Position numbers and translations under genes: made by a program. A DNA stretch of 64,000 nt from Patescibacteria group bacterium (GTDB taxonomy: Bacteria; Patescibacteriota; Patescibacteriia; UBA9934; GWF2-40-263): the NCBI GenBank assembly GCA_018814025.1, contig JAHJAM010000023.1, positions 1,896 through 65,895 of the forward strand, in the 5' to 3' direction. Below are positions 6,946 through 55,429 of this stretch, in pieces. The number at the start of each line of letters is the position of its first letter. The first letter of the stretch is position 1. The notes beneath the pieces are model-generated. The model ran no database searches, was not told the origin of the DNA, and saw only the letters and a list, made by a program, of their open reading frames with translations.

Positions 6946-7035
<90 letters not shown>

Positions 7036-8939: not shown

Positions 8940-8976
8940 CCCTTTGACCCTACCTACTTTTACCCTACCTACCCTT

Positions 8977-10356
8977 ATGTTTCGAAAAACCCTCCCCATC
9001 TTCCTCCTGCTCACTTTCCTCTTCACCACCGGCCAAGGCTGCGGCGGTCCTTCGGTGGCCGAGCAAGCGGCCGCTCAGCCCGTCACTTTAACTATCTGGC
9101 GAGTTTTTGATGAAGACGACACCATGAAGGACATCATGAATGCCTACCGAACCCTTCACCCCAATGTTTCTTTTGAATATCGCCAAATGCGGGTTGATGA
9201 ATACAAAAACGAACTTTTGCGCGCTTTTGCCGAAGGCACGGGCCCGGATATCTTTTCCATCCATAACACCTGGATGAATGAATTCAAAAGTTTGATCGGT
9301 CCCTTGCCCGCCTCGCTGACCATTCCCTACATCGAAATCAAAGGCACTATTAAACAAGAAAAAATTATCACTTTGCGCGAAGAGCCTTCGATTACTCCGG
9401 CTCAAGTTCGCCGCGATTTCGTGGATGTGGTGGCTCAAGACGCGGTCATGCGCTATCAGCCCAATCCCAAAGACGTGCCGCAAGAACGAATTTTTGGCCT
9501 GCCCATGTCCGTGGACACCTTGGCCATGTTCTATAACAAAGATTTATTAAACGCGGCCGGGATTGCGCAGCCCCCGACCAACTGGGCCGAATTTCAAGCG
9601 GCCGTCGTCGCTCTCACCAGTATTGGCACGGATGATTTAATTATTCAATCCGGCGCCGCCTTGGGCGGCAGTGCGAACGTGGAACGAGCTTTTGATATCG
9701 TTTCTTTGCTCATGATGCAAAACGGCACGCCCATGATTGATGATCGCGGCAATTGCACCATTGGCTGGAATGATCGAGATAAACAAACCGTGCCCGGCGC
9801 GGACGCAGTCCGCTTTTACACTGATTTCGCCAACCCGCTCAAAGAGGTCTATGCCTGGAATGCCAGCCAGCCCAACTCCTTTGATGCTTTCACTTCCGGC
9901 AAAACCGCTTTCTTCTTCGGTTATTCTTACCACCTGCCTCAAGTCCGCTCGCGCGCCCCGAAACTCAATTTTGCCGTGGCCCCCACCCCGCAAATCAGCG
10001 GCGGCCACACCGTCAATTACGCCAACTATTGGGTGGAAACCGTTTCCAAAGCCACCAAAGCCAACAATTGGGCCTGGGATTTTGTCCAATTCGCCACCAA
10101 GGCCAACCAAGTTCAAAGCTATCTGAAAATCGCCAACCGGCCCACGGCTCGCCGCGATTTAATCAACAGCCAAATCGATGATGAAGATTTAAATCCCTTC
10201 GTCAGCCAATTGCTCACGGCTCAAAGCTGGTACCGCGGCCAAGACATTGAAGTGGCCGAACAAGCTTTCCTGGATTTAATCGATGCGGCTTTAGCTGGAA
10301 AAATTATCGAAGATGAAATTGATCTGACCCAAAGCAAAATCAACCAAACTCTATGA
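8977..10356 (+). CDS. extracellular solute-binding protein, family 1 (sugar-type ABC transporter SBP), lipoprotein
   Basis: Signal/lipobox (..TTGQGC); family-1 signature region ...VDTLAMFYNKDLLNAAGI; no permease or ATPase gene adjacent. Confidence 0.5.
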   Translation: MFRKTLPIFLLLTFLFTTGQGCGGPSVAEQAAAQPVTLTIWRVFDEDDTMKDIMNAYRTLHPNVSFEYRQMRVDEYKNELLRAFAEGTGPDIFSIHNTWMNEFKSLIGPLPASLTIPYIEIKGTIKQEKIITLREEPSITPAQVRRDFVDVVAQDAVMRYQPNPKDVPQERIFGLPMSVDTLAMFYNKDLLNAAGIAQPPTNWAEFQAAVVALTSIGTDDLIIQSGAALGGSANVERAFDIVSLLMMQNGTPMIDDRGNCTIGWNDRDKQTVPGADAVRFYTDFANPLKEVYAWNASQPNSFDAFTSGKTAFFFGYSYHLPQVRSRAPKLNFAVAPTPQISGGHTVNYANYWVETVSKATKANNWAWDFVQFATKANQVQSYLKIANRPTARRDLINSQIDDEDLNPFVSQLLTAQSWYRGQDIEVAEQAFLDLIDAALAGKIIEDEIDLTQSKINQTL

Positions 10357-10781
10357 GGAAAATCATCCTAACAATTTTTGTCGGCTGTCTTTTTCTCCTA
10401 TCCGCTGCCCCGGCCTTGGCCGATGTGTGCAAAAGTGATAGCTGTTCTAAAACCGAAGTCGGCGCTTTCATGCAAGATATTGCCGCCAAATGCTACAACA
10501 CCGGCGATTGTTCCTTGGCCGACATCATGATCGTGATTAACAACGTGGGAATTTATGTCCTGGGCATCATCGGCTCTCTGGTTCTGCTCATGTATGTCAT
10601 CGGCGGCATCATGATGCTGACCTCAGAGGGAGGAGATCGGAAAGTCCAAGGAAAAAAGATGATCGTCGGTGCCACTGTTGGCATGATCATTGTCTTTGCC
10701 GCTTACGCCGCCATCATCACCCTGGACAGTGTTTTGCGCAATCGCGGCCTGGCCGAAACCATTAGCGAACAACAAAAGTAA
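10353..10781 (+). CDS. T4SS-pilin-like (TrbC/VirB2-like) small membrane protein, paralog 1, with 4-Cys insert
   Basis: Signal peptide; C-terminal GGIMMLTSEGG..K..GKK.I..A.VG.II..AAYA two-TM motif shared with the four downstream genes; ATGA start/stop overlap with the SBP gene. Confidence 0.55.
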   Translation: MRKIILTIFVGCLFLLSAAPALADVCKSDSCSKTEVGAFMQDIAAKCYNTGDCSLADIMIVINNVGIYVLGIIGSLVLLMYVIGGIMMLTSEGGDRKVQGKKMIVGATVGMIIVFAAYAAIITLDSVLRNRGLAETISEQQK

Positions 10782-10808
10782 CCAAATCCAACCAATAATC
10801 TTTATCTT

Positions 10809-11159
10809 ATGAGAAAACAATACTGGCTTGGCACTTTCCTGGGGATAACTCTGGCCTGTCTGCCCCTGATCGCCTTTGGCGCCAAATTAACTAATCCCCT
10901 GGGCGAAGGTCCTGATGCCGCGGATTTCCGTGTTATAATAGGCCGAGTTATTCAGTTTCTTTTGGGCTTATCCGGCTCCTTGGCTTTGCTCATGTTTGTT
11001 TGGGGCGGCGTTCAGTGGATGATTTCCGGCGGCGTTCCGGACAAAATCAAAAAAGGCAAAGACACTTTGATTTGGGCAACTATCGGACTTGTGGTAATAT
11101 TTACTGCATACACGCTGGTCAGCACCCTGATCAAGGCTCTGGCCAACAGTCCGGCTTAA
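10809..11159 (+). CDS. T4SS-pilin-like (TrbC/VirB2-like) protein, paralog 2
   Basis: Same architecture: WGGVQWMISGG..DKIKKGKD...GLVVIFTAYTLVS. Confidence 0.55.
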   Translation: MRKQYWLGTFLGITLACLPLIAFGAKLTNPLGEGPDAADFRVIIGRVIQFLLGLSGSLALLMFVWGGVQWMISGGVPDKIKKGKDTLIWATIGLVVIFTAYTLVSTLIKALANSPA

Positions 11160-11221
11160 CTCGTATCTTTATCAAATAACTTAATTAACCTCACTATAAA
11201 CTTAAGAGGTAAAACATCCAT

Positions 11222-11614
11222 ATGAAAGAACTTTATTACAAAATCGGCACCAAGTTAGCCATTTTGCCCGTGCTCTTAGCCCCTAAAGCCACCTTCGCCC
11301 AAGCTTTGGGACAAGAAGATCTTTTCGGCGGCATAGGTTCAGAAGAGTTTGCTGGCTCTGCCGGTTTGGGAAGCGCTAATTTGACCGATACCATTGCTTC
11401 CATCATCCGCACCATCCTCGGATTTTTAGGCATCATCGCCGTGGTCATTATCCTCTTCGGCGGTTTCAAGTGGATGACTTCCGGCGGCGCTGAAGAAAAA
11501 GTTAAAGATGCCAAAAAACTCATCATCTCCGGCATTATCGGTTTGGTAATTGTACTCTCGGCCTTTGCCATTGCCTCATTTGTCATCACCAACATCGCTC
11601 AGGTTGCTGCTTAA
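11222..11614 (+). CDS. T4SS-pilin-like (TrbC/VirB2-like) protein, paralog 3
   Basis: FGGFKWMTSGGAEEKVKDAKKLIISGIIGLVIVLSAFAIASFVITN. Confidence 0.55.
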   Translation: MKELYYKIGTKLAILPVLLAPKATFAQALGQEDLFGGIGSEEFAGSAGLGSANLTDTIASIIRTILGFLGIIAVVIILFGGFKWMTSGGAEEKVKDAKKLIISGIIGLVIVLSAFAIASFVITNIAQVAA

Positions 11615-11687
11615 TCGAAACGATTTTCTTGGGCCAACCATTGGTTGGCCCATAACGCAAGCGGATAATTTTTTATCCCTTCGCGTT

Positions 11688-12149
11688 ATGAAAAAGATCC
11701 TCAACGCCTTTTTCTTGATCATTATCGGTCTGTTCTCGTTCAGTGCCGTCCCGGCCTTGGCCCAAGGCGGCGTGGCTTTGGAAGGCCTGGATAAAACCGC
11801 GGGCGTGGCCGAATACACCACTGGCGAATCCGCCAATCTGACTAATGTCGTGGGTGGGTTGATTGGTTCGCTTCTGGGCGTACTCGGCATCGTTTTCGTC
11901 ATCCTGCTTATCTATGGCGGCATCAGATATATGACCGCCAGCGGTGATGAAACGCACGTCAAAGAAGCCAAAAGCCTTTTAATCGCAGCCACTGTCGGAT
12001 TAATTATCACGATTTCTGCTTACGCCATTGCCTCATTTACCCTGTCGAGATTATCCATTGGCTTAGGTATTGATAATCAGGGAAAACTAATCTGCGATCC
12101 GGAAACCGGCGTCTGTGTTCAAGGCGGACCAGCCGTTCCCTCTGACTAA
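11688..12149 (+). CDS. T4SS-pilin-like (TrbC/VirB2-like) protein, paralog 4, with Cys-containing C-terminal tail
   Basis: Start placed at MKKILNAFFLIIIGLFSFSAVPALAQG (signal peptide); YGGIRYMTASGDETHVKEAKSLLIAATVGLIITISAYAIASF; the upstream extension of ORF 11550 is rejected. Confidence 0.5.
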   Translation: MKKILNAFFLIIIGLFSFSAVPALAQGGVALEGLDKTAGVAEYTTGESANLTNVVGGLIGSLLGVLGIVFVILLIYGGIRYMTASGDETHVKEAKSLLIAATVGLIITISAYAIASFTLSRLSIGLGIDNQGKLICDPETGVCVQGGPAVPSD

Positions 12150-12194
12150 TTGCAACATAAATTTTATTTATAATAATCAATTATCTAAATCGCT

Positions 12195-12578
12195 ATGAAA
12201 AACATGTTCTACAAAATCGGAGCCTGGATCTCCGTTCTCCCGGTCCTTCTGCTCCCCACCGCCACTTATGCCGGACTTACCGATGCTGGCACTAACCTGT
12301 CTCAAGTTGGCGATGCCGCTAGTTTATCGCAAAACGAAAGAAGCTTACCGAAATTGATTGGTGGTTTGATTAACGTCATTATTAGTGTCTTGGGAATTGT
12401 CTTCGTGATTCTAATTGTCTACGCGGGTATCCTTTATATGACCGCCGGCGGCGAAAAAGACAAAGTCGAAAAAGCCAAAAATCTGATGATCCAAGCGGTG
12501 ATTGGTTTAGTCATCATTGTGGCCGCTTACGCCATTTCAAGCTTTGTTATCACCCAACTCACCACCATCACTTCATAA
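12195..12578 (+). CDS. T4SS-pilin-like (TrbC/VirB2-like) protein, paralog 5
   Basis: YAGILYMTAGGEKDKVEKAKNLMIQAVIGLVIIVAAYAISSFVITQ. Confidence 0.55.
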   Translation: MKNMFYKIGAWISVLPVLLLPTATYAGLTDAGTNLSQVGDAASLSQNERSLPKLIGGLINVIISVLGIVFVILIVYAGILYMTAGGEKDKVEKAKNLMIQAVIGLVIIVAAYAISSFVITQLTTITS

Positions 12579-12586
12579 TCTAAATC

Positions 12587-12618
12587 CAAAAACACCCCGC
12601 TTGGGCGGGGTGTTTTTT
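12587..12618 (+). terminator. intrinsic terminator ending the pilin array
   Basis: AAAAACACCCCGC-TTG-GGCGGGGTGTTTTTT. Confidence 0.7.
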
Positions 12619-12622
12619 AATT

Positions 12623-12650
12623 AAAAAAGCCCTCGACCGAAGTCGAGGGC
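12623..12650 (-). terminator. intrinsic terminator of the minus-strand lipoprotein genes
   Basis: On the minus strand AGCCCTCGACTTCGGTCGAGGGCTTTTTT. Confidence 0.65.
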
Positions 12651-12677
12651 TGTGTCAGAGAAAGAACGGAAAGGAGA

Positions 12678-13220
12678 TCAGTAGTACTGATCCACGCTGT
12701 CGACCGGTCCGTTGCCTCGACGCGCGCGCTTTTCCCAGACCTTGCGGCATCGGCCCTGATAGTCGCAGGACAAACCCACAACCACGATCTGAGCTCCGGG
12801 CTGGTCAATCGGCACCCACAAGGCCTGCCCGATCGGCGCCGCCTTGTAAGACACGCTGTCATAGCGCCCGTCGCCGTCCAAGTCCGCAAAGACCTGAGCC
12901 AGCGGCATACCGAAGCAGTTGGTCGATAGCAGATACACGCCCATCGATTCGAAGTTTACCACCATGTGGCTGGCCGTCGGCGCCTTCTTCTCCATGTGCT
13001 GGATCTCGAAGCCGCGGAAACCCACGGGCTTGCACGCCTTGGCCGACAGATGAGAGGCCGCCTTGTTGTACTCCTGCACCTCCACGGACTGGCCTGCCCA
13101 ATTGGGCTGCATGATTCGGGCCGAAGCCAGCTGACCGCGCGAACCCGGGTTATAGGTGAAAGGCACCATCCCGCAACCCACGCTTGCCGCTGCCAGAATG
13201 AGGATTATGAAACATTTCAT
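12678..13220 (-). CDS. hypothetical lipoprotein (GC-rich, atypical codon usage)
   Basis: Signal peptide with lipobox (AASVGC); 180 aa; I recognise no family; composition differs from the flanking genes. Confidence 0.45.
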   Translation of the reverse strand: MKCFIILILAAASVGCGMVPFTYNPGSRGQLASARIMQPNWAGQSVEVQEYNKAASHLSAKACKPVGFRGFEIQHMEKKAPTASHMVVNFESMGVYLLSTNCFGMPLAQVFADLDGDGRYDSVSYKAAPIGQALWVPIDQPGAQIVVVGLSCDYQGRCRKVWEKRARRGNGPVDSVDQYY

Positions 13221-13249
13221 GATTCTTCTCCCTTCTGTTGTAGTGGTTG

Positions 13250-13909
13250 CTACTTCTGATCGAACTCGCCACCCAGCAGGATCTCGTTATCCTTCTTGAT
13301 GACGGTCATCTCGTCCTTCATGACCTTGTTCTCCGTTTCGGCCGCCACCACTCGCTCTTCAAGCTTCTTAAGAGCTTCGGCACCGGCCGCTGACAGGCTG
13401 GCTGTTCCTGACTGGCCGGTTGGCGTATTGGCGAAACCTTGCTGAACCGGCATCGAAGTGCCGCCCAAAGCCGAAACCGGAACTGCCGTCGGCGCCTGCA
13501 CCCCATTCATCCTCATCATCTGATCCCGAAGGGCCATCTGAGAATCCATGAGGTAGATCTGATCGATCCCGCCGCCGAACATGTTACCCATGCCCGGCAT
13601 ACCCATCATACCCATACCATTGCCACCAGAGGCTGCCTGGACCACACTCGCGTCGCCTGTGGCGGCGCGCTTGCAGTTCCCGAAATTGTCGCAGTCCTCG
13701 ATCTGGGCGTTCTTGCCTTCTTCCATGGCCTTAGCCGTTGCCTTAGCCACCACCGTATCCGCGGTCTCGAACCCGTGGGTCTTCTTCTCTACCCTGACCT
13801 TGGCATGGGTCTCGGGATCTGTCTCGTACCGGACCTTGGACTCGGAAGTGTAAGCACATCCCGAGAGCATCGAAATCGCCAACGCGATCATCATCACTCG
13901 CTTCATCAT
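13250..13909 (-). CDS. Met/Gly-rich lipoprotein with C-terminal coiled coil
   Basis: Start placed at MMKRVMMIALAISMLSGC (lipobox LSGC); low-complexity GNGMGMMGMPGMGNMFGGG segment; C-terminal heptad-like KKLEERVVAAETENKVMKDEM. Confidence 0.45.
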   Translation of the reverse strand: MMKRVMMIALAISMLSGCAYTSESKVRYETDPETHAKVRVEKKTHGFETADTVVAKATAKAMEEGKNAQIEDCDNFGNCKRAATGDASVVQAASGGNGMGMMGMPGMGNMFGGGIDQIYLMDSQMALRDQMMRMNGVQAPTAVPVSALGGTSMPVQQGFANTPTGQSGTASLSAAGAEALKKLEERVVAAETENKVMKDEMTVIKKDNEILLGGEFDQK

Positions 13910-14111
13910 CGCCTCCTGCTGGTTAAAACCAGACGTTCTGACTGTTAATATTTCAAGGTCCAAAAAAGGCACCAACTCGAGGGGATGTTATACGCCCGGT
14001 AGTCCAACCAATGGTTGCACTTCCGGGTCAAGCCGGAACGTCGTTTCGTTTGGCTTCATAACATAAGTTAGCACCTTTTTTGACCCCTCAAATGTCATTT
14101 TGCAACAGCTA

Positions 14112-14140
14112 AATATATCACAATTTTACGATTTTGTCAA
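14112..14140 (-). promoter_or_regulatory. consensus sigma70-like promoter (TTGACA-N17-TATATT) for the lipoprotein genes
   Basis: Minus-strand TTGACA at 14135-14140 and TATATT at 14112-14117 with an exact 17-nt spacer; a leader of about 190 nt reaches the gene start near 13909. Confidence 0.5.
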
Positions 14141-14197
14141 CCCGATAGGACAGCAAACGGTTGTACTACCGGGTCAAGGGTTTGAGGCTAATTTTAG

Positions 14198-14238
14198 TAA
14201 AAAAAGAGCCCAAGCGCGTGTAACAACGCGCTTGGGCT
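14198..14238 (-). terminator. intrinsic terminator of the 799-aa membrane protein gene
   Basis: Minus strand AGCCCAAGCGCG-TTGTTACA-CGCGCTTGGGCT followed by CTTTTTTT. Confidence 0.65.
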
Positions 14239-14243
14239 AGAAG

Positions 14244-16643
14244 TTAAAAGGACTTGCAATTCTTATCGAACTTAGCCTTGGCCGCCTGATTGTTGGCCAT
14301 CAGCTCCTTCCAATTGGCACACAGAGCCTGCTGTCTGGGCGTGAGCTTCGGCTTTCCTCCCTGCTTCTTGCCGCCAGTCCCAATGGACCGAACAACCGGG
14401 CTTGCTCTGGGCAGATCGTTCTTGGAAACCTCGCCCCTGAACAGGAGCCAGCCCAGGAAGATGGCAACCAACATGGCCGATATTGTAGCGATCAAACCGG
14501 CCAAGTCAGGGCTGAAAGCGCTCAGCCCATCTTTGTACGAGCGTTGCATGCTTGCCCTGACAACCCCGCCGATCACCAAACAAATGATGATAGACAGAAT
14601 CACGAACAGTGCCTTACCACTGAGATCAGGCAGCTGATCAACGCCCATGATCGACAGAGAACTGTCGTTGATCATGTATTTCTGCTGGCCGGAAGGCGTC
14701 TCCACGGTCTTGACCAGAACTCCGGGCAAATTGACCATCGTGCCCTTGGGCAGGACCACGATCCCGGCCGCTCCGTCGCACGTGAAGTGCTCGACCAAAG
14801 CCTTTTTCTGCGCTTTAGCCTCAGTCTGCTTGCTGACGTTGTTCTTATTCTCCTCAGTCAACAAGCACTTGTCAGTCAAAGCCGCACTCAGCTTCTCACC
14901 GAAGACCTTGAGGGCCGGCTCGTAGCGCTGGCCCGGCAAAGGCACAACCAGGGTGTTAACCTGCTCGCCCTTGTCCGAAAACTCAGCCTGCCAAGCCACG
15001 GTCACGGGAAAAGCTGCACTCTCGCGCAAATCGTTGATCACGGCCGCTCGGCCGCACACCAACAACATCACGATCGCCAGCAAGATCGGCCAAGTGCCGA
15101 TCCGCTCTTCGCTTTTGGCCGAAAACAGCCAGGCCGAGAGCAGCAGCGCCGCCAACGTTCCCACCACTCGGCCGAACATCGCAAAGTCAGCCAAGTTAAT
15201 GAACACGCACAGGACCATGTTGAGCACGATCGCCCAAGCCAGACCCCGAGCGTAATTCACGCCCCAATGGAAATCTCGGCCGGCCGCGATTTCCGTGACT
15301 CGATCCAGCACTGCCTCCACAGCCTTCACCGGAAGCAGTAGCAAGGCAAGCGGCAGTCCCAGCCCCATGGCCAGCCCAATCGCCAAGACCGGGTAACCGA
15401 TCAGTGTGGCCAACCATGGCAAAGCCAGGAGCAACACCGCGATCAGCAAGCCCACAATGGACCGCTTGACCCAGGTCCAGATGAACTGTTTTCGGCGCGT
15501 GGCGACTTGGTCGCCTCCCTCATCGTCCGTAAACAAAGAGAGAATCGTCGATTTCCACTCCTGGAAGGGCGCCAATTCCGCGCCGCTCACATCAAGAGCG
15601 GTGATGTATTCGATCATGAACTCTTCCGGCATTGTGCCGTCAGGCTCAATTTTTCCCTCGAGCTGATGAGCCAGCTCTTCCAGGACCTGCACATTGCGAA
15701 TCGTCGCCGGATTATTGACCGCTTCCAAGAACTTCTCAAAGTTCTTGTACTTGACTGAGGTGAAGCTCAGCGAAGTCGTCCCGCGCATCCGACGTGCCAC
15801 CGACCTGATCACGGCCACGTGGACCTTGATCAACAGCGGACTGGCCTGGTCGAAATTCTTGACCGAAGGCTGGGTAGCGGTTGAAGCTTTCTTTTGAAGA
15901 TCAACCTCACCCACATTCCCCATGCACACCGGACAGAAGAATTTCTTCTGAGCCAAAGCGATGCCGATGGGATGAACTTCGACTTTCCAGAGCTTGCCTC
16001 CGACCAGCACATCCTTTTTTAACTTGTTGTCCCACCGTGTGGTCTGGGCATTCAGCTCCTCAAACATAGCCTCCGCACTCGCATACAGCTCGCACGGAAC
16101 CACCGGATTGCCATTCTCCTTCTTCATGACCGTCCCGTCGGCATTGAGCGCCACGCGATGCGCACCAGCCACCCGGGGGGCGACCGCTGCCATCTCGTAC
16201 TCGCCCACCGACGCGGCCGTCGTACCCGCGGCCGGCGTACCCAATTTCTCATCAACCGTCCGGTCAATGAGATCTTCGAGATCCGCATCCGCCAGCCCGT
16301 CCACAGCACCGAAGCACAGATGAGGAATCAGGGCCTTGATCACGGCTTTGGTCTTGGGCTTCAAGTAAGCGCTTGGAATAAAATCCACGAGCCACTCAGC
16401 CGCCCCGCCGACCGCTCGTCCGAACATCTCGAACCCCGGCAGTTTGCGCGCGCCATTGATCAACAGGAAGAAGGACTTGGCGAACTCGTTCTCATTCTGG
16501 CGCTTGGCCAGCTCCACCAGCAATGAACCGGCCACGTTCCGAGCCCCTTTCTCAAAGGTCTCGGTTCCGACCGCCTTGCCGGCAGTACCAAAAAAGTCTC
16601 CAAACCTGCTCAAATCCAAGTCTCCAAAAGTCACCTTGGCCAT
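14244..16643 (-). CDS. large polytopic membrane protein of unknown function (about 400-aa soluble N-terminal region with a CPVC motif, then two TM clusters and a basic C-terminal tail)
   Basis: 799-aa ORF with a good SD (GGAGGAAAGAG) before the ATG; GC-rich with AAG-preferring codon usage unlike the flanks; I recognise no known domain. Confidence 0.5.
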   Translation of the reverse strand: MAKVTFGDLDLSRFGDFFGTAGKAVGTETFEKGARNVAGSLLVELAKRQNENEFAKSFFLLINGARKLPGFEMFGRAVGGAAEWLVDFIPSAYLKPKTKAVIKALIPHLCFGAVDGLADADLEDLIDRTVDEKLGTPAAGTTAASVGEYEMAAVAPRVAGAHRVALNADGTVMKKENGNPVVPCELYASAEAMFEELNAQTTRWDNKLKKDVLVGGKLWKVEVHPIGIALAQKKFFCPVCMGNVGEVDLQKKASTATQPSVKNFDQASPLLIKVHVAVIRSVARRMRGTTSLSFTSVKYKNFEKFLEAVNNPATIRNVQVLEELAHQLEGKIEPDGTMPEEFMIEYITALDVSGAELAPFQEWKSTILSLFTDDEGGDQVATRRKQFIWTWVKRSIVGLLIAVLLLALPWLATLIGYPVLAIGLAMGLGLPLALLLLPVKAVEAVLDRVTEIAAGRDFHWGVNYARGLAWAIVLNMVLCVFINLADFAMFGRVVGTLAALLLSAWLFSAKSEERIGTWPILLAIVMLLVCGRAAVINDLRESAAFPVTVAWQAEFSDKGEQVNTLVVPLPGQRYEPALKVFGEKLSAALTDKCLLTEENKNNVSKQTEAKAQKKALVEHFTCDGAAGIVVLPKGTMVNLPGVLVKTVETPSGQQKYMINDSSLSIMGVDQLPDLSGKALFVILSIIICLVIGGVVRASMQRSYKDGLSAFSPDLAGLIATISAMLVAIFLGWLLFRGEVSKNDLPRASPVVRSIGTGGKKQGGKPKLTPRQQALCANWKELMANNQAAKAKFDKNCKSF

Positions 16644-16830
16644 CTCTTTCCTCCGTATACGGCTAAGCCGATTTGTTTTTAGGTTGTTAACGATCTATTT
16701 AAACTCGGCTAAGCCGAGAGATCTCCCCATATGGGATTGCCGATTAATCGGCCTACCCGCATACGAAAGACACGTAAATATACCATATTTTAGCCAAAAT
16801 GTCAACCCTGTCTGACAGGGCCCTTGAAAC
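16644..16830 (-). promoter_or_regulatory. promoter (TTGACA-N17-TATATT, minus strand, 16777-16805) plus a palindrome-rich 5' leader for the 799-aa gene
   Basis: Palindromes CCCTGTCTGACAGGG (16806-16820, abutting the -35), GCCGATTAATCGGC (16739-16752), CGGCTAAGCCG twice (16660-16670, 16706-16716) and CCGTATACGG (16653-16662). Confidence 0.45.
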
Positions 16831-16864
16831 AAAAAATTCCATCACCGGGTGATGGAATTTTTAC
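16831..16864. terminator. bidirectional intrinsic terminator (ends the Fe-S operon on the minus strand)
   Basis: AAAAAATTCCATCACC-GG-GTGATGGAATTTTT, a symmetric hairpin with A and T runs. Confidence 0.65.
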
Positions 16865-16879
16865 AATATTTAAGCTGAA

Positions 16880-30237: not shown

Positions 30238-31416
30238 TTATTTCTTGGCCGACATCTTTTTGTTAGCCTTCTTCTTCTTTTTTGCCGAAGCGGCCGTTAG
30301 CCCTTCAAGCTGAGCACCAGGGTAAGTTCCGTCGACCAAATATTGGCTGAACAGAGACTTGGTCATCTCTCGGAGATCCTCGGTAAAAACTTCCGGGGTC
30401 GTCTGTTTTTCTCGAGTTCCCACAAAAGAACCAATTCTCATTTCTACTCGGCAGGGAGTCATCGAAATCACCTTTCCCTCGATGGGGTCTTCGGCCTGCA
30501 TTCCGGAAACAGTTACCGAAACCGTAGTGATGCCTTCTTGGTTGGCAGCTGCCACCACCACCTGTCCGCCCATGGCCTTGATCATGGAATGCAGATCAGC
30601 TCGTACGGCATTGGCGGCCGCGTTCATCGGGAACACGCCCGTATCAGTCTCCTCAATCGTTCGGGTCACCAGCACCCCAAATTTCTGATCCTTGAAGTTT
30701 GGGATCTGAGCGATCTGTTGGGCCTGGTTCTTGGCTCCCAAAGCCGCCAGACACTTCTCCTGCATGCCGCGCGCTTCGTCGCTGATCCGCGCCATGTTCT
30801 GAACGCAGAACTTCTCGAACACGCTTTCTTCCTGGCTGTCGTGTTCGCATCCATACTTGTCCGAGTTTGAGAATTCAGCTAAAGCTCGACACTGCTGGCG
30901 CAGGCCATCAAGCTTCAGAGCCAAATCGCCCGCATCCTCCCAAAGACCCATGGCCACAATCCGCTCGTAACGCAGTTTTGTGTTGCCCAGGGCTTCACGA
31001 TTGTCCAGGATTTTCTGCCTGGCCTTGGCTCGGTTCTCGCGCTTGAGTTCAAGCACAGTGTCCGCTTGCTTCCTGATCCCCAAAAACTCGGCGCACTTCA
31101 GACCCTCATCGGGCCAGTGCTCGAGCAAAGGCTGGAAAGCTGCCTGGCAAAATTTTCGGTATTTCACTTCCGTGGGCGAACTCTGCTCAATGGACACGCC
31201 GTCCTGGAGTGCATAGTAGTCATTGTCCAAGGCGTCTTGCCAAGCCGAGAAAGCCACCAGCAGCGCCTGGGGCTGTCCCGAGCTCTGCCAATTTGCAGTT
31301 GCTGCCTTGGCCGCCCGGACATATGCCTCGTTGCTCTCCTGCGCCAAAGCTGGCGGAACCGTAATCCATGCGATCATCAAACAAGAGACAGAAAGAAACT
31401 GTTTGTGAAGGTGCAT
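30238..31416 (-). CDS. secreted hypothetical protein with poly-Lys C-terminal tail
   Basis: Signal peptide (..ITVPPALAQE); 392 aa; C-terminus SAKKKKKANKKMSAKK; good SD (AGGAGG); no family recognised. Confidence 0.45.
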   Translation of the reverse strand: MHLHKQFLSVSCLMIAWITVPPALAQESNEAYVRAAKAATANWQSSGQPQALLVAFSAWQDALDNDYYALQDGVSIEQSSPTEVKYRKFCQAAFQPLLEHWPDEGLKCAEFLGIRKQADTVLELKRENRAKARQKILDNREALGNTKLRYERIVAMGLWEDAGDLALKLDGLRQQCRALAEFSNSDKYGCEHDSQEESVFEKFCVQNMARISDEARGMQEKCLAALGAKNQAQQIAQIPNFKDQKFGVLVTRTIEETDTGVFPMNAAANAVRADLHSMIKAMGGQVVVAAANQEGITTVSVTVSGMQAEDPIEGKVISMTPCRVEMRIGSFVGTREKQTTPEVFTEDLREMTKSLFSQYLVDGTYPGAQLEGLTAASAKKKKKANKKMSAKK

Positions 31417-31481: not shown

Positions 31482-31540
31482 ACTATAGCAAAAAAATCAC
31501 CTTTTGTCAACCCCGTACCACCATGCACTGTGGTACGGGG
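31482..31540 (-). promoter_or_regulatory. consensus promoter (TTGACA-N17-TATAGT) with an 11-bp-stem hairpin abutting the -35
   Basis: Minus-strand -35 at 31505-31510 and -10 at 31482-31487; hairpin CCCCGTACCAC-N8-GTGGTACGGGG at 31511-31540, flanked by direct GTCAAC repeats. Confidence 0.45.
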
Positions 31541-40695: not shown

Positions 40696-41272
40696 AAAAT
40701 AAGAAATTACTTATTGTTTCCTTATCTTAGCATCGAATTACTTACAAGGCAATAGTTCGACAGGACAATTTAACAAATAAAAAAGGGTCTCATAGCCCCT
40801 AAATGAAGATTTTGTGGGTGAGACCCTAAGCTGTAGATCGTGGCTTGAGACATGCCGGGTTCTGGGCTCGAGGGAACCTCACAACTCGACATGCCTTTTG
40901 GCACATGCGATCTTGGCGTCAACTCAGCCCCTCTACCATTCAATGGTCGTCTTCGCGGATGCTCATCTGGCGAGCAACTTTTGTGCGAGCTGACCGAGGA
41001 TGGTGATTCTGTTTTATTTCTATTTTATGGTGAACAGTAAAGAGGTGGGGTATTTTCCGAAAGTCATGATGAACAGGTGTGGGGGACCTATTGCCGGACT
41101 AACCGGACACCTTCGGAAAACTTCCCAGAGTTGGGAACATGGAAAGAACGTTTACTCATCTATAATATCATGTTGAACACTAAATGTCAACGCTGAAATA
41201 CTAATCTAATATTAGGTAAAAACATCACTGAAAATAAAAAAAGTGTTCAAGAACACAATCCAATCTAAAAAG

Positions 41273-54156: not shown

Positions 54157-54343
54157 ACCCGCCATCGCCGCAAAATTTGCGGTTTTGCTCTTTTCAAGTG
54201 AAGTGTTCAAAGCAGTTAAAAACGATCTCCTCCAGTTTCACTGGTGGCCTCGGATTCCGAAAGGACCGAGTCTGGCATACGAAATATCTCGGTGCCAGCG
54301 ATCGTTCTTAAAGATGCCCCAAAAAGGGCAGCGGGAGTGCCAG

Positions 54344-55429
54344 ATGACTCAGAACCAGAACCGGAACCGGAACACCACCACGGGCAACAACCGCCGCTAC
54401 CGCCGGCACGAAAACGAGCCAACCAAGCTCACCAAGTTTTCGTACGCCACCGATGGCGGCAGCCTCGACGTGGTCACCGGTCCCATGCACTCGGTGCACG
54501 GGTACCTTCAGCGGACCAAGGACAAGATCGCCATCTCGGCCATCTCGCTGAGCACTCTGCTCAAGCAGGCCATTGTCTCGGTGATCGTGTTCAAGAGCGA
54601 CAAACCCGGCATGTTCTCAACCAAGACCTTGATCCCCAAGGCCATCCTCGATGAGGTCTACCGAACCGCCAGCTACTACAGCGGCGTGCCCATCCAGATG
54701 GCCTGGCTGCGCCTCTTCGGGGATCTGGACCACAAGGTCCGCGTCGCCAGCTTCGACAGCGAGATCTTCAACGACAACTTCGGCTTCCTGGTCAACCGGT
54801 TCATGAAGGAGTTCAGCTTCATCTTTAAGGGCGGTCTGCTCAACGGCCATGCCGACACCAACACGCTGGTTCTCACCGCCCCGTACAACCCCAAGGCCAC
54901 GCGCCAGACCTACGCAAGCAACGGCACCAACTTCGGGCCGCTGCCCACGGTCACCGACAAGTCGGTCTGCCAGAGTGTCTTCGGCAAGAACCTGCTGGTG
55001 CAGGCCGAGCGCGGCGGTAACATCATGTTCGGGCTCACCAGCCAGAACCTGAGCGACTACCTCAACCACAAGATCGCCAAGCCCGACTGGGTCAAGGCCG
55101 GCAAGTTCGATGGCAACATCATCGAGCTCTCCAGCATCCCGGTCAACGCCGGCGTCATGGTCGTCACCACCGAGCGCAAGGGTGACCGTCGCTTCGACCT
55201 GGTTCGCGTGAACTGGGACAAGGATCTGCCCGTGATCCGGCCGGATCGCCAGATCCAGGTCATGGGGATCGCTCCGGTGATCCGCACCGACCAGAATGGC
55301 ATCATCACCTACGGCAGCGACCTGGACAACAGCTTCATCGGCATCATCCCGACTGACCAGCTGGGCTCCGAGTTCGCGGGCCTGATCGCCACCCCGCCGG
55401 TCGCCTCCACCCTGCCGAACATCATGTAG
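54344..55429 (+). CDS. orphan protein of foreign composition with an Asn/Arg-rich N-terminal arm (unknown function; capsid-like N-terminus is speculative)
   Basis: GGGAG six nt before ATG 54344 (alternative ATG at 54314); 362 aa; codons almost all C/G-ending (AAG, TTC, AAC, GAC, ATC), unlike the neighbours; N-terminus MTQNQNRNRNTTTGNNRRYRRHENE. Confidence 0.55.
   Translation: MTQNQNRNRNTTTGNNRRYRRHENEPTKLTKFSYATDGGSLDVVTGPMHSVHGYLQRTKDKIAISAISLSTLLKQAIVSVIVFKSDKPGMFSTKTLIPKAILDEVYRTASYYSGVPIQMAWLRLFGDLDHKVRVASFDSEIFNDNFGFLVNRFMKEFSFIFKGGLLNGHADTNTLVLTAPYNPKATRQTYASNGTNFGPLPTVTDKSVCQSVFGKNLLVQAERGGNIMFGLTSQNLSDYLNHKIAKPDWVKAGKFDGNIIELSSIPVNAGVMVVTTERKGDRRFDLVRVNWDKDLPVIRPDRQIQVMGIAPVIRTDQNGIITYGSDLDNSFIGIIPTDQLGSEFAGLIATPPVASTLPNIM

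Follow-up and report, generated by a model that had tools for sequence, protein, structure and literature searches.

Bacterial surface-antigen cassettes such as slpA, rsaA and those yielding ompA-type mRNAs combine strong promoters, structured 5' untranslated regions (5' UTRs), distinctive codons and rapid divergence. Other genes are controlled through rare codons, as with bldA and TTA codons in Streptomyces and in transcripts tunable by tRNA modification, or through structured leaders, which sequester the Shine-Dalgarno (SD) sequence in RNA thermometers and translational riboswitches and are processed by RNase III at leader hairpins in pnp and rnc. Here we describe a block of three cell-envelope genes, referred to together as the trio, on a 64,000-nt stretch of contig JAHJAM010000023.1 from a Patescibacteria group bacterium (the whole stretch is called the window). 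The genes encode a polytopic membrane protein and two lipoproteins:

14244..16643, minus strand: polytopic-protein gene, 799 aa (open reading frame, ORF)
13250..13909, minus strand: lipoprotein gene, 219 aa, lipobox LSGC (ORF)
12678..13220, minus strand: lipoprotein gene, 180 aa, lipobox VGC (ORF)

They form two transcription units (TUs), TU1 with the 799-aa gene and TU2 with the 219-aa and 180-aa genes. We found that the block holds one fixed chromosomal position in all nine lineages in which we compared it, and it is probably a resident, vertically inherited envelope gene set of an Uhrbacteria-type Patescibacteria clade, rapidly diversifying and under specialised expression control.

The locus resembles each of the described systems in part. 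It shares with surface-antigen cassettes the strong promoters, structured 5' UTRs, distinctive codons and rapid divergence, but its products are membrane-embedded or lipid-anchored without S-layer or cell-wall-binding domains, and one of its leaders hides the ribosome-binding site. As in bldA/TTA-type control, a few genes carry codons avoided elsewhere in the genome, here AAG, GAG and CAG, although no dedicated tRNA or modification enzyme is linked to the trio. The closing helix of the TU1 leader pairs an anti-SD stretch with GGAGG, as in SD-sequestering leaders, and the TU2 leader holds an almost continuous helix of ~30 bp near its 5' end, as in leader hairpins processed by RNase III; unlike the known types, both leaders are without an Rfam match and confined to this locus in one clade.

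Homologues of two proteins, the large one and the Pyr_redox protein beside the block, led to eight other Uhrbacteria-type lineages (L001/L013, L002/L003, L012, L014, L015, L017/L018, L019 and L020, with L017/L018 being a Candidatus Uhrbacteria assembly). Flank-protein identity to the window is 75-87% in L001/L013, L002/L003 and L012, and ~54-66% in L014, L015, L017/L018, L019 and L020. The gene order of iron-sulfur (Fe-S) operon, Pyr_redox gene and a gene for a large polytopic protein lacking Pfam domains recurs in 8/8 of these lineages, with one or two small secreted-protein or lipoprotein genes after the large gene wherever the contig continues. All five lineages with long enough contigs continue with a convergent array of 4-6 PF18895 pilin genes, followed by SBP_bac_8 and NTP_transferase genes. 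The initial annotation had proposed a horizontally acquired, self-contained envelope module and a presence/absence comparison at this locus. Self-containment stands, with own promoters, own terminators, a polytopic protein and two lipoproteins; acquisition does not, since the outcome that the annotation had named as refuting it was obtained: the comparison found the block in synteny in 8/8 related lineages, with the same composition trend in each one not saturated in third-position G+C, and no empty site between the flanks in any of the eight. The immediate neighbours are the Fe-S/Pyr_redox operon on one side and the convergent pilin array on the other, and the pnp-like gene that had been taken for flanking DNA lies ~26 kb off.

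Within this fixed order, the block proteins have diverged several times as fast as any of their neighbours, yet their architecture is preserved; they are 25-44% identical to their counterparts or no longer alignable. Compared with L002/L003, the flanks are 76-87% identical and the three block proteins 41%, 33% and 43% (the 219-aa lipoprotein 33% to L002 6112-6813 and the 180-aa lipoprotein 43% to L003 3515-4099); compared with L012, flank identity of 75-86% contrasts with 26% for the large protein; and compared with L014 and L017, the flanks are 54-81%, the pilins 41-69% and the block at most 24% identical, the last not significant. Divergence is uneven within the large protein, which is mosaic: its core is conserved (66-84%) and its ends vary (16-32%). 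The intergenic DNA of the module is conserved far more strongly than its coding DNA. Differences from public copies of nearly the same sequence were also considered: region 6216-26643 shows 8 single-position differences in ~20 kb from the NCBI copy, 2 of them within the block, and 8 in ~14.5 kb from the Logan copy, with seven common to the two comparisons, so the window represents a third assembly or strain that differs slightly from both. Such single-nucleotide differences (8 in 20 kb, 2 in the block) were set aside as uninformative about the block. The 799-aa product appears in public record GCA_018822945.1 under locus tag KJ611_03210.

The trio genes are G+C-richer (0.57-0.61) than the adjoining Fe-S genes (0.42-0.49), in agreement with an earlier estimate by eye. 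Their G+C at third codon positions (GC3) is 0.725, 0.736 and 0.779, against a mean of 0.531 (standard deviation 0.085) for the 56 other window genes (z +2.3 to +2.9), and only one other window gene exceeds these values; tetranucleotide usage in the block correlates at 0.29 with that of the remaining window, versus 0.54±0.08 for other tiles. The reported compositional contrast is thereby confirmed. The AAG fraction is 0.79 in the trio versus 0.32 elsewhere, GAG 0.76 versus 0.30 and CAG 0.91 versus 0.37, and overall 0.78-0.88 of Lys/Glu/Gln codons end in G versus 0.30±0.14 elsewhere (z 3.4-4.1). G+C at four-fold degenerate sites (GC4) is no outlier, at 0.67-0.74 for the trio versus 0.62±0.11 (z 0.4-1.0). 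The composition anomaly is mainly codon choice in two-fold boxes, namely G-ending Lys/Glu/Gln codons and C-ending two-fold codons, and the reported preference for AAG over AAA and for C- or G-ending codons is distinctive in two-fold boxes and ordinary at four-fold sites. Third-position G-C strand skew in the block equals that of same-strand neighbours. The antisense shadow ORFs described earlier are all present as listed, and are an expected by-product of high GC3.

Two further window genes, both Pfam-less orphans, are the only others with this codon signature. The first, at 54185-55429 on the plus strand, encodes a 414-aa orphan with the top GC3 of the window (0.87) and 0.84 of Lys/Glu/Gln codons ending in G; unlike in the trio, its four-fold sites are G+C-rich too (GC4 0.88), and no transmembrane (TM) segment is evident by eye in its translation. 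The second, at 30238-31416 on the minus strand, encodes a 392-aa secreted-looking orphan without a Pfam match, with 0.67 of Lys/Glu/Gln codons ending in G and a GC4 of 0.58 (below average). Its promoter at 31482-31510 has an extended -10 consensus with one mismatch, and it may share an expression or codon class with the trio. A reciprocal codon bias between pilins and block was dropped as a candidate, being present in this window but not in relatives.

The GC3 excess of the block recurs in relatives, at +0.216±0.054 in 8/8 non-saturated lineages (window included), and block GC3 follows flank GC3 (r=0.81):

L019: flank GC3 0.33, block GC3 0.50-0.57
L001: flank GC3 0.41, block GC3 0.57-0.63
window: flank GC3 0.49, block GC3 0.73-0.78
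L012: flank GC3 0.50, block GC3 0.67
L017: flank GC3 0.51, block GC3 0.82-0.85
L015: flank GC3 0.52, block GC3 0.68-0.82
L002: flank GC3 0.57, block GC3 0.80-0.87
L014: flank GC3 0.60, block GC3 0.77-0.80

In five lineages (window, L002, L012, L014 and L017) the G-ending fraction of Lys/Glu/Gln codons is 0.72-0.90 in the block versus 0.28-0.41 outside it, and the GC4 shift of the block over six lineages is only +0.03 to +0.23. Low-GC L019 is less clear (0.54 versus 0.36, with GC4 shifted about as much). In L017 (also L018), a purD gene at 12104-13390 is inserted between the large gene and the two small genes, with a GC3 of 0.59 versus 0.82-0.85 for the block genes around it; this near-normal value amid the block ties the GC3 effect to the block genes themselves, not to the stretch of chromosome that holds them. 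Because block orthologues are saturated in sequence, their shared codon preference is not inherited from a donor, and its recurrence despite saturation indicates that some force on these genes maintains it in each genome.

One such force could be a recombination hot spot with GC-biased gene conversion, in which imported alleles gain from diversifying selection and frequent homologous exchange, anchored on conserved leaders and flanks, drives both divergence and GC3. Recombining bacterial genes do have higher GC3 (PMC4450053), the GC3 rise here is strand-symmetric relative to same-strand flanks, and both the conserved regulatory DNA beside hypervariable coding DNA and the mosaic large protein would fit such exchange. 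GC-biased conversion predicts at least an equal shift at four-fold sites, however, and GC4 barely moved in the window (+0.06) and in L012 (+0.03) compared with a shift of +0.34 to +0.50 in Lys/Glu/Gln codons, so plain conversion alone fits poorly. The L017 purD gene, near background amid the block genes, and the uniform GC3 over conserved and variable parts of the large-protein gene also speak against it, and we consider this explanation unlikely.

Outside its coding sequence, the module is defined by the following elements:

16777..16805, minus strand: TU1 promoter, TTGACA-N17-TATATT with TG extended -10 (exact consensus match)
16644..16776, minus strand: TU1 5' leader, ~133 nt, multi-helix (folding and consensus structure)
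14207..14238, minus strand: TU1 intrinsic terminator, 13-bp stem then T-run (terminator scan; kept in L001, L002 and L012)
14112..14140, minus strand: TU2 promoter, TTGACA-N17-TATATT with TG extended -10 (exact consensus match)
13910..14111, minus strand: TU2 5' leader, ~200 nt (folding and covariation)
12628..12651, minus strand: TU2 intrinsic terminator (terminator scan)
16831..16864, minus strand: intrinsic terminator of the Fe-S/Pyr_redox operon, upstream module boundary (hairpin and T-run read in the sequence)

The TU1 and TU2 promoters are the only exact matches to TTGACA-N14-TGnTATAWT in the 64-kb window, versus 0.03 expected; the identical promoters reported for each transcription unit are thus borne out, with the TG extension in both. 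The TU2 promoter is kept in L002, L012, L014, L015 and L019. The TU1 promoter spacer holds a near-palindrome, ATTTTGGCTAAAAT (16787-16800, minus strand), which L001, L002 and L012 carry unchanged and L019 almost unchanged, despite the L019 flank proteins being only about half identical to those of the window; this conservation suggests a candidate protein-binding site. Another sequence, GGCTAAAAT, was rejected as a recurrent window motif (2 matches versus 0.9 expected). Terminators were correctly said to bracket the block on both sides. The TU2 terminator stands back to back with that of the convergent pilin operon (12583-12622), and the 16831-16864 hairpin, which ends the Fe-S operon, was missed by the terminator scan because its stem has too few G-C pairs, although the stem is maintained through compensatory changes in L001, L002 and L012.

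Around the TU2 promoter we also observed a palindromic element of ~35-49 nt (CCCGG[T/A]AGT.CAACC...CTA.CGGG) in two copies that are 73% identical, one at 13984-14032, at the apex of the TU2 leader helix, and one at 14130-14178, immediately upstream of the TU2 -35 box and flanked by duplicated TTGAC. Both copies are absent from the corresponding sites in relatives, and no further copy was found in the window.

Both leaders fold with unusual stability. The TU1 leader has a minimum free energy (MFE) of -54.7 kcal/mol (z -5.5), and in the predicted fold UCUUUCGUAUGCGG and CCGUAUACGGAGGA form a 14-bp closing helix that sequesters the SD sequence. Its consensus structure over 4 lineages has 33 pairs with compensatory changes at 4, in the inner hairpin; closing helices like that of TU1 were seen by eye in L015, L017 and L020, and the covariance model (R2) matches this locus only. 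The TU2 leader (MFE -74.2 kcal/mol, z -5.2) is dominated by a long helix at 13949-14094, in which UUUGAGGGG...AAGGYGC pairs with GYGCCUU...CCUU and an apical CCCCUC is conserved, and it carries a small hairpin directly before the SD sequence. The long helix is conserved as far as L014, L015 and L019; over its 23 pairs, pairing is kept in 93% of cells and both sides have changed at 8 pairs, whereas 0/500 shuffles reach the observed value and slid controls give 41-55%. A TU2 covariance model found an independent match in L019 (59 bits, E 5e-13) and no other copy in the sequences scanned. Both leaders show the compensatory changes and unusual stability by which structured cis-regulatory leaders are generally recognised. 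Searches of Rfam 15 with either leader gave sub-threshold matches only, all on terminator hairpins, and the leader DNA pattern, searched for further loci, gave one chance match inside a dxr gene. Reading the T-run of the TU2 leader as an attenuator terminator was rejected, as the run makes up the 3' side of the long helix and changes in concert with an A-run.

These elements bear on the possibility that the codon signature marks ordinary very high expression, the trio being very abundant, S-layer-like surface proteins whose atypical codons are translationally optimal. The two best promoters of the window do belong to the block, its 5' UTRs are long and structured as in S-layer and ompA-type mRNAs, abundant surface antigens typically diverge fast, and the G-ending Lys/Glu/Gln fractions of rpsT (0.50) and PPase (0.44) lie above average. 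Against this, A-ending Lys/Glu/Gln codons are preferred by tig (0.28 G-ending), pnp (0.26), polA and the pilins (0.16), a range of 0.16-0.28; an SD sequence sequestered by the TU1 leader is ill-suited to maximal translation; and the products, a polytopic protein and lipoproteins, have no SLH-type or S-layer domain. With one ribosomal-protein gene (rpsT) in the window, this is a weak test of expression-related codons. Standard optimal-codon selection is not clearly supported as the cause of the signature, and we regard very high expression as a doubtful explanation of the block.

The 799-aa protein has 7 TM segments by hydropathy, arranged as a ~390-aa N-terminal region, 5 TM segments, a ~135-aa beta-rich domain, 2 TM segments and a basic tail with a C-x20-C helical hairpin at its end. 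Residues H162, C184 and C237-x2-C240 of the N-terminal region are invariant among close homologues, and C593/C622 are conserved in the beta-rich domain. From this layout, the N-terminal domain would be cytoplasmic, with the ectodomain and the basic two-Cys tail facing outward. Homologues are rare: a word search of 5.8 billion proteins gave only 3, a profile search of 1.84 billion representatives gave only 15, and a third search with a 17-sequence profile found no additional members; all family members whose context was examined lie at this locus. Shared across the 15 members are a predicted cytoplasmic N-terminal region of ~370-390 aa, ~7 TM segments and a tail rich in Pro/Ser/Thr/Ala or in Lys, and nearly all members end in a C-x10-20-C motif. 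Sequence profiles against PDB and fold searches gave no match for the 799-aa protein. Searches for more loci returned nothing with A1 in genome_contigs and metagenome_contigs, and only distant oxidoreductases with the flank protein in GTDB representatives.

In the 219-aa lipoprotein, a low-complexity centre rich in Gly and Met precedes a coiled-coil-like segment at the C terminus. The first small gene in relatives always encodes a lipoprotein with a Gly/Met- or Gly/Tyr-rich centre, and orthologous lipoproteins with Gly/Tyr-rich centres stand at the same position in L017, L019 and L020. The 180-aa lipoprotein has a conserved C-terminal domain with an ADLDGDGRxD (DxDxDG-type) motif; its family alignment (A14) covers 6 lineages, and a PDB search with the family gave no match. 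A further member of this third family, a lipoprotein with QADLDGDRRID, is encoded at L019 13101-14057, a stretch that is empty in public gene calls. The trio gave no real match in Pfam, PHROG, NCBIfam or PADLOC, and the earlier impression that none of the three products matches a known family holds across these databases, PDB and the fold searches.

The position of the trio beside pilin genes raises the question of type IV secretion. The array next to it is as follows:

10353..12578, plus strand: VirB2-like pilin paralogues (PF18895), array of five, convergent to the trio (context only)

A SBP_bac_8 lipoprotein gene precedes the five PF18895 paralogues on the plus strand (8944-12578 in all), and the first pilin gene overlaps its end (10353-10356), so the SBP gene and the pilins are probably co-transcribed. 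A pilin array adjoins the module in all five lineages with sufficiently long contigs, and on synteny alone a working relationship between the trio and the VirB2-like array is possible. Several observations argue against such a link: the two are transcribed towards each other and meet at their 3' ends, neither virB4 nor virD4 was found in the 64-kb window or within ±10 kb in five relatives, and the large-protein family has only 15 representatives and was seen only at this Uhrbacteria-type locus, whereas pilin arrays are widespread in Patescibacteria (PMC12102498).

A stronger form of this link would make the trio diverged parts of a type IV secretion system (T4SS), with a VirB6-like polytopic protein and VirB7-like lipoproteins assembling the adjacent VirB2-like pilins. 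Besides the adjoining array in the five lineages, the locus lies ~10 kb from dnaA/dnaN, a frequent site of Patescibacteria T4SS genes. VirB6 of Patescibacteria T4SS is reported to be extremely divergent and VirB7 to be a fast-evolving lipoprotein (PMC12102498; PMC10633639), the VirB7 family being without a hidden Markov model (PMC12102498). The trio likewise sets a polytopic protein and small fast-evolving lipoproteins beside VirB2-like pilins near the replication origin, as do VirB6 and VirB7 of the MPF-FATA-like systems (PMC12102498), and its large protein, with ~7 TM segments across the family by hydropathy, has the at least five expected of VirB6/TrbL. Yet the 799-aa protein matched neither TrbL/VirB6 or PrgH profiles nor the solved VirB6 fold, and differs from VirB6 in that its TM segments are bundled in the middle, behind a cytoplasmic N-domain of 390 aa; the lipoproteins have lipoboxes, but their similarity to TraV or EexN lies in the signal peptide only. 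With no detected sequence or fold similarity, no virB4 nearby and convergent orientation to the pilins, the trio is quite unlikely to be a set of T4SS parts.

The weakest alternative is the genomic island suggested by the initial annotation, in which the block came from a G+C-richer donor and has not yet adopted host composition. The block does share with islands called by atypical composition its unusual GC3 (z +2.3 to +2.9), codon usage and tetranucleotides (0.29 versus 0.54±0.08), its sharp boundaries at terminators, its own promoters and its orphan products. Its locus, unlike an island's, is fixed in eight other lineages with flank identity down to 54%; its GC3 offset (+0.22) is regenerated in each genome and tracks host GC3 (r=0.81), residing in two-fold codons and not in base composition, as four-fold sites are ordinary (GC4 z 0.4-1.0); and its strand skew, matching that of neighbours, fits long residence. 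As the initial annotation had noted, there is no integrase or transposase; direct repeats bracketing the block and att-like repeats were likewise not found, the closest tRNA (position 6946) is ~5.6 kb distant, and tblastn against 50,697 phage and 72,556 plasmid records returned no relatives of the block. An entry already in the clade's common ancestor is conceivable, but with synonymous sites saturated it would leave the present composition unexplained. We consider an island highly improbable.

We therefore return to a resident, rapidly diversifying envelope gene set, for which we propose the following mechanism. The 799-aa protein, as a 7-TM anchor, and the two lipoproteins would form a surface complex whose exposure to hosts or phages would drive its diversification. 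Expression may be set after transcription, with the TU1 leader occluding the ribosome-binding site until opened and the TU2 long helix acting as a processing or stability element, and the atypical codons could tune translation. Two other sources of diversity or function were considered and set aside: a diversity-generating retroelement target (no reverse transcriptase domain among neighbours and no long near-identical repeat) and an anti-phage defence system (no match to PADLOC models).

Several points weigh against this interpretation. The block of L020, a genome with a whole-genome GC3 of ~0.86, is without compositional contrast, and covariation of the leaders is based on only 4-5 sequences. 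The topology of the 799-aa protein comes from hydropathy and charge alone, and the TM count places the very basic tail outside, contrary to the positive-inside rule; the AlphaFold2 model from 15 sequences is weak (predicted local distance difference test, pLDDT, 64; predicted template modelling score, pTM, 0.34), and one from 3 sequences was discarded as unusable (pLDDT 43). G-ending Lys/Glu/Gln codons may be either rare or optimal here: tig, pnp, polA and the pilins prefer A-ending ones, but rpsT and PPase lie above average. Overall, the interpretation draws on nine lineages in total, low-confidence structure and window-level codon context.

Apart from the trio, ~460 nt at 40696-41155 (minus strand) lie without a convincing ORF between a near-consensus promoter (41162-41190) and a terminator-like hairpin with a U-run. 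Its predicted fold is much more stable than those of shuffled sequences (z -5.0), and Rfam holds no match for it; the stretch may encode a structured RNA, so far unannotated, that lies upstream of a DksA-like gene.

Patescibacteria are generally regarded as living attached to hosts, and to our knowledge almost nothing of their surface machinery has been characterised. The locus yields three families of orphan envelope proteins and two candidate cis-regulatory RNAs, all fixed at one position beside the pilins in a Patescibacteria clade. It also shows composition-based island calling to be misled, the strongest codon outliers of the region being its most deeply rooted lineage-specific genes, and a codon inversion that persists through saturation needs an active force, for example selection on decoding or on mRNA properties. 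Tentatively, and with low confidence, the trio may be a host- or phage-facing specificity determinant of Uhrbacteria-type episymbionts belonging to a new expression class, in which consensus promoters, structured leaders and inverted Lys/Glu/Gln codons would make translation depend on the tRNA pool or U34 modification; the orphans at 30238-31416 and 54185-55429 share the codon preference, one of them with a near-consensus promoter. If true, a minimal genome would be running a surface-variation programme gated by codons.

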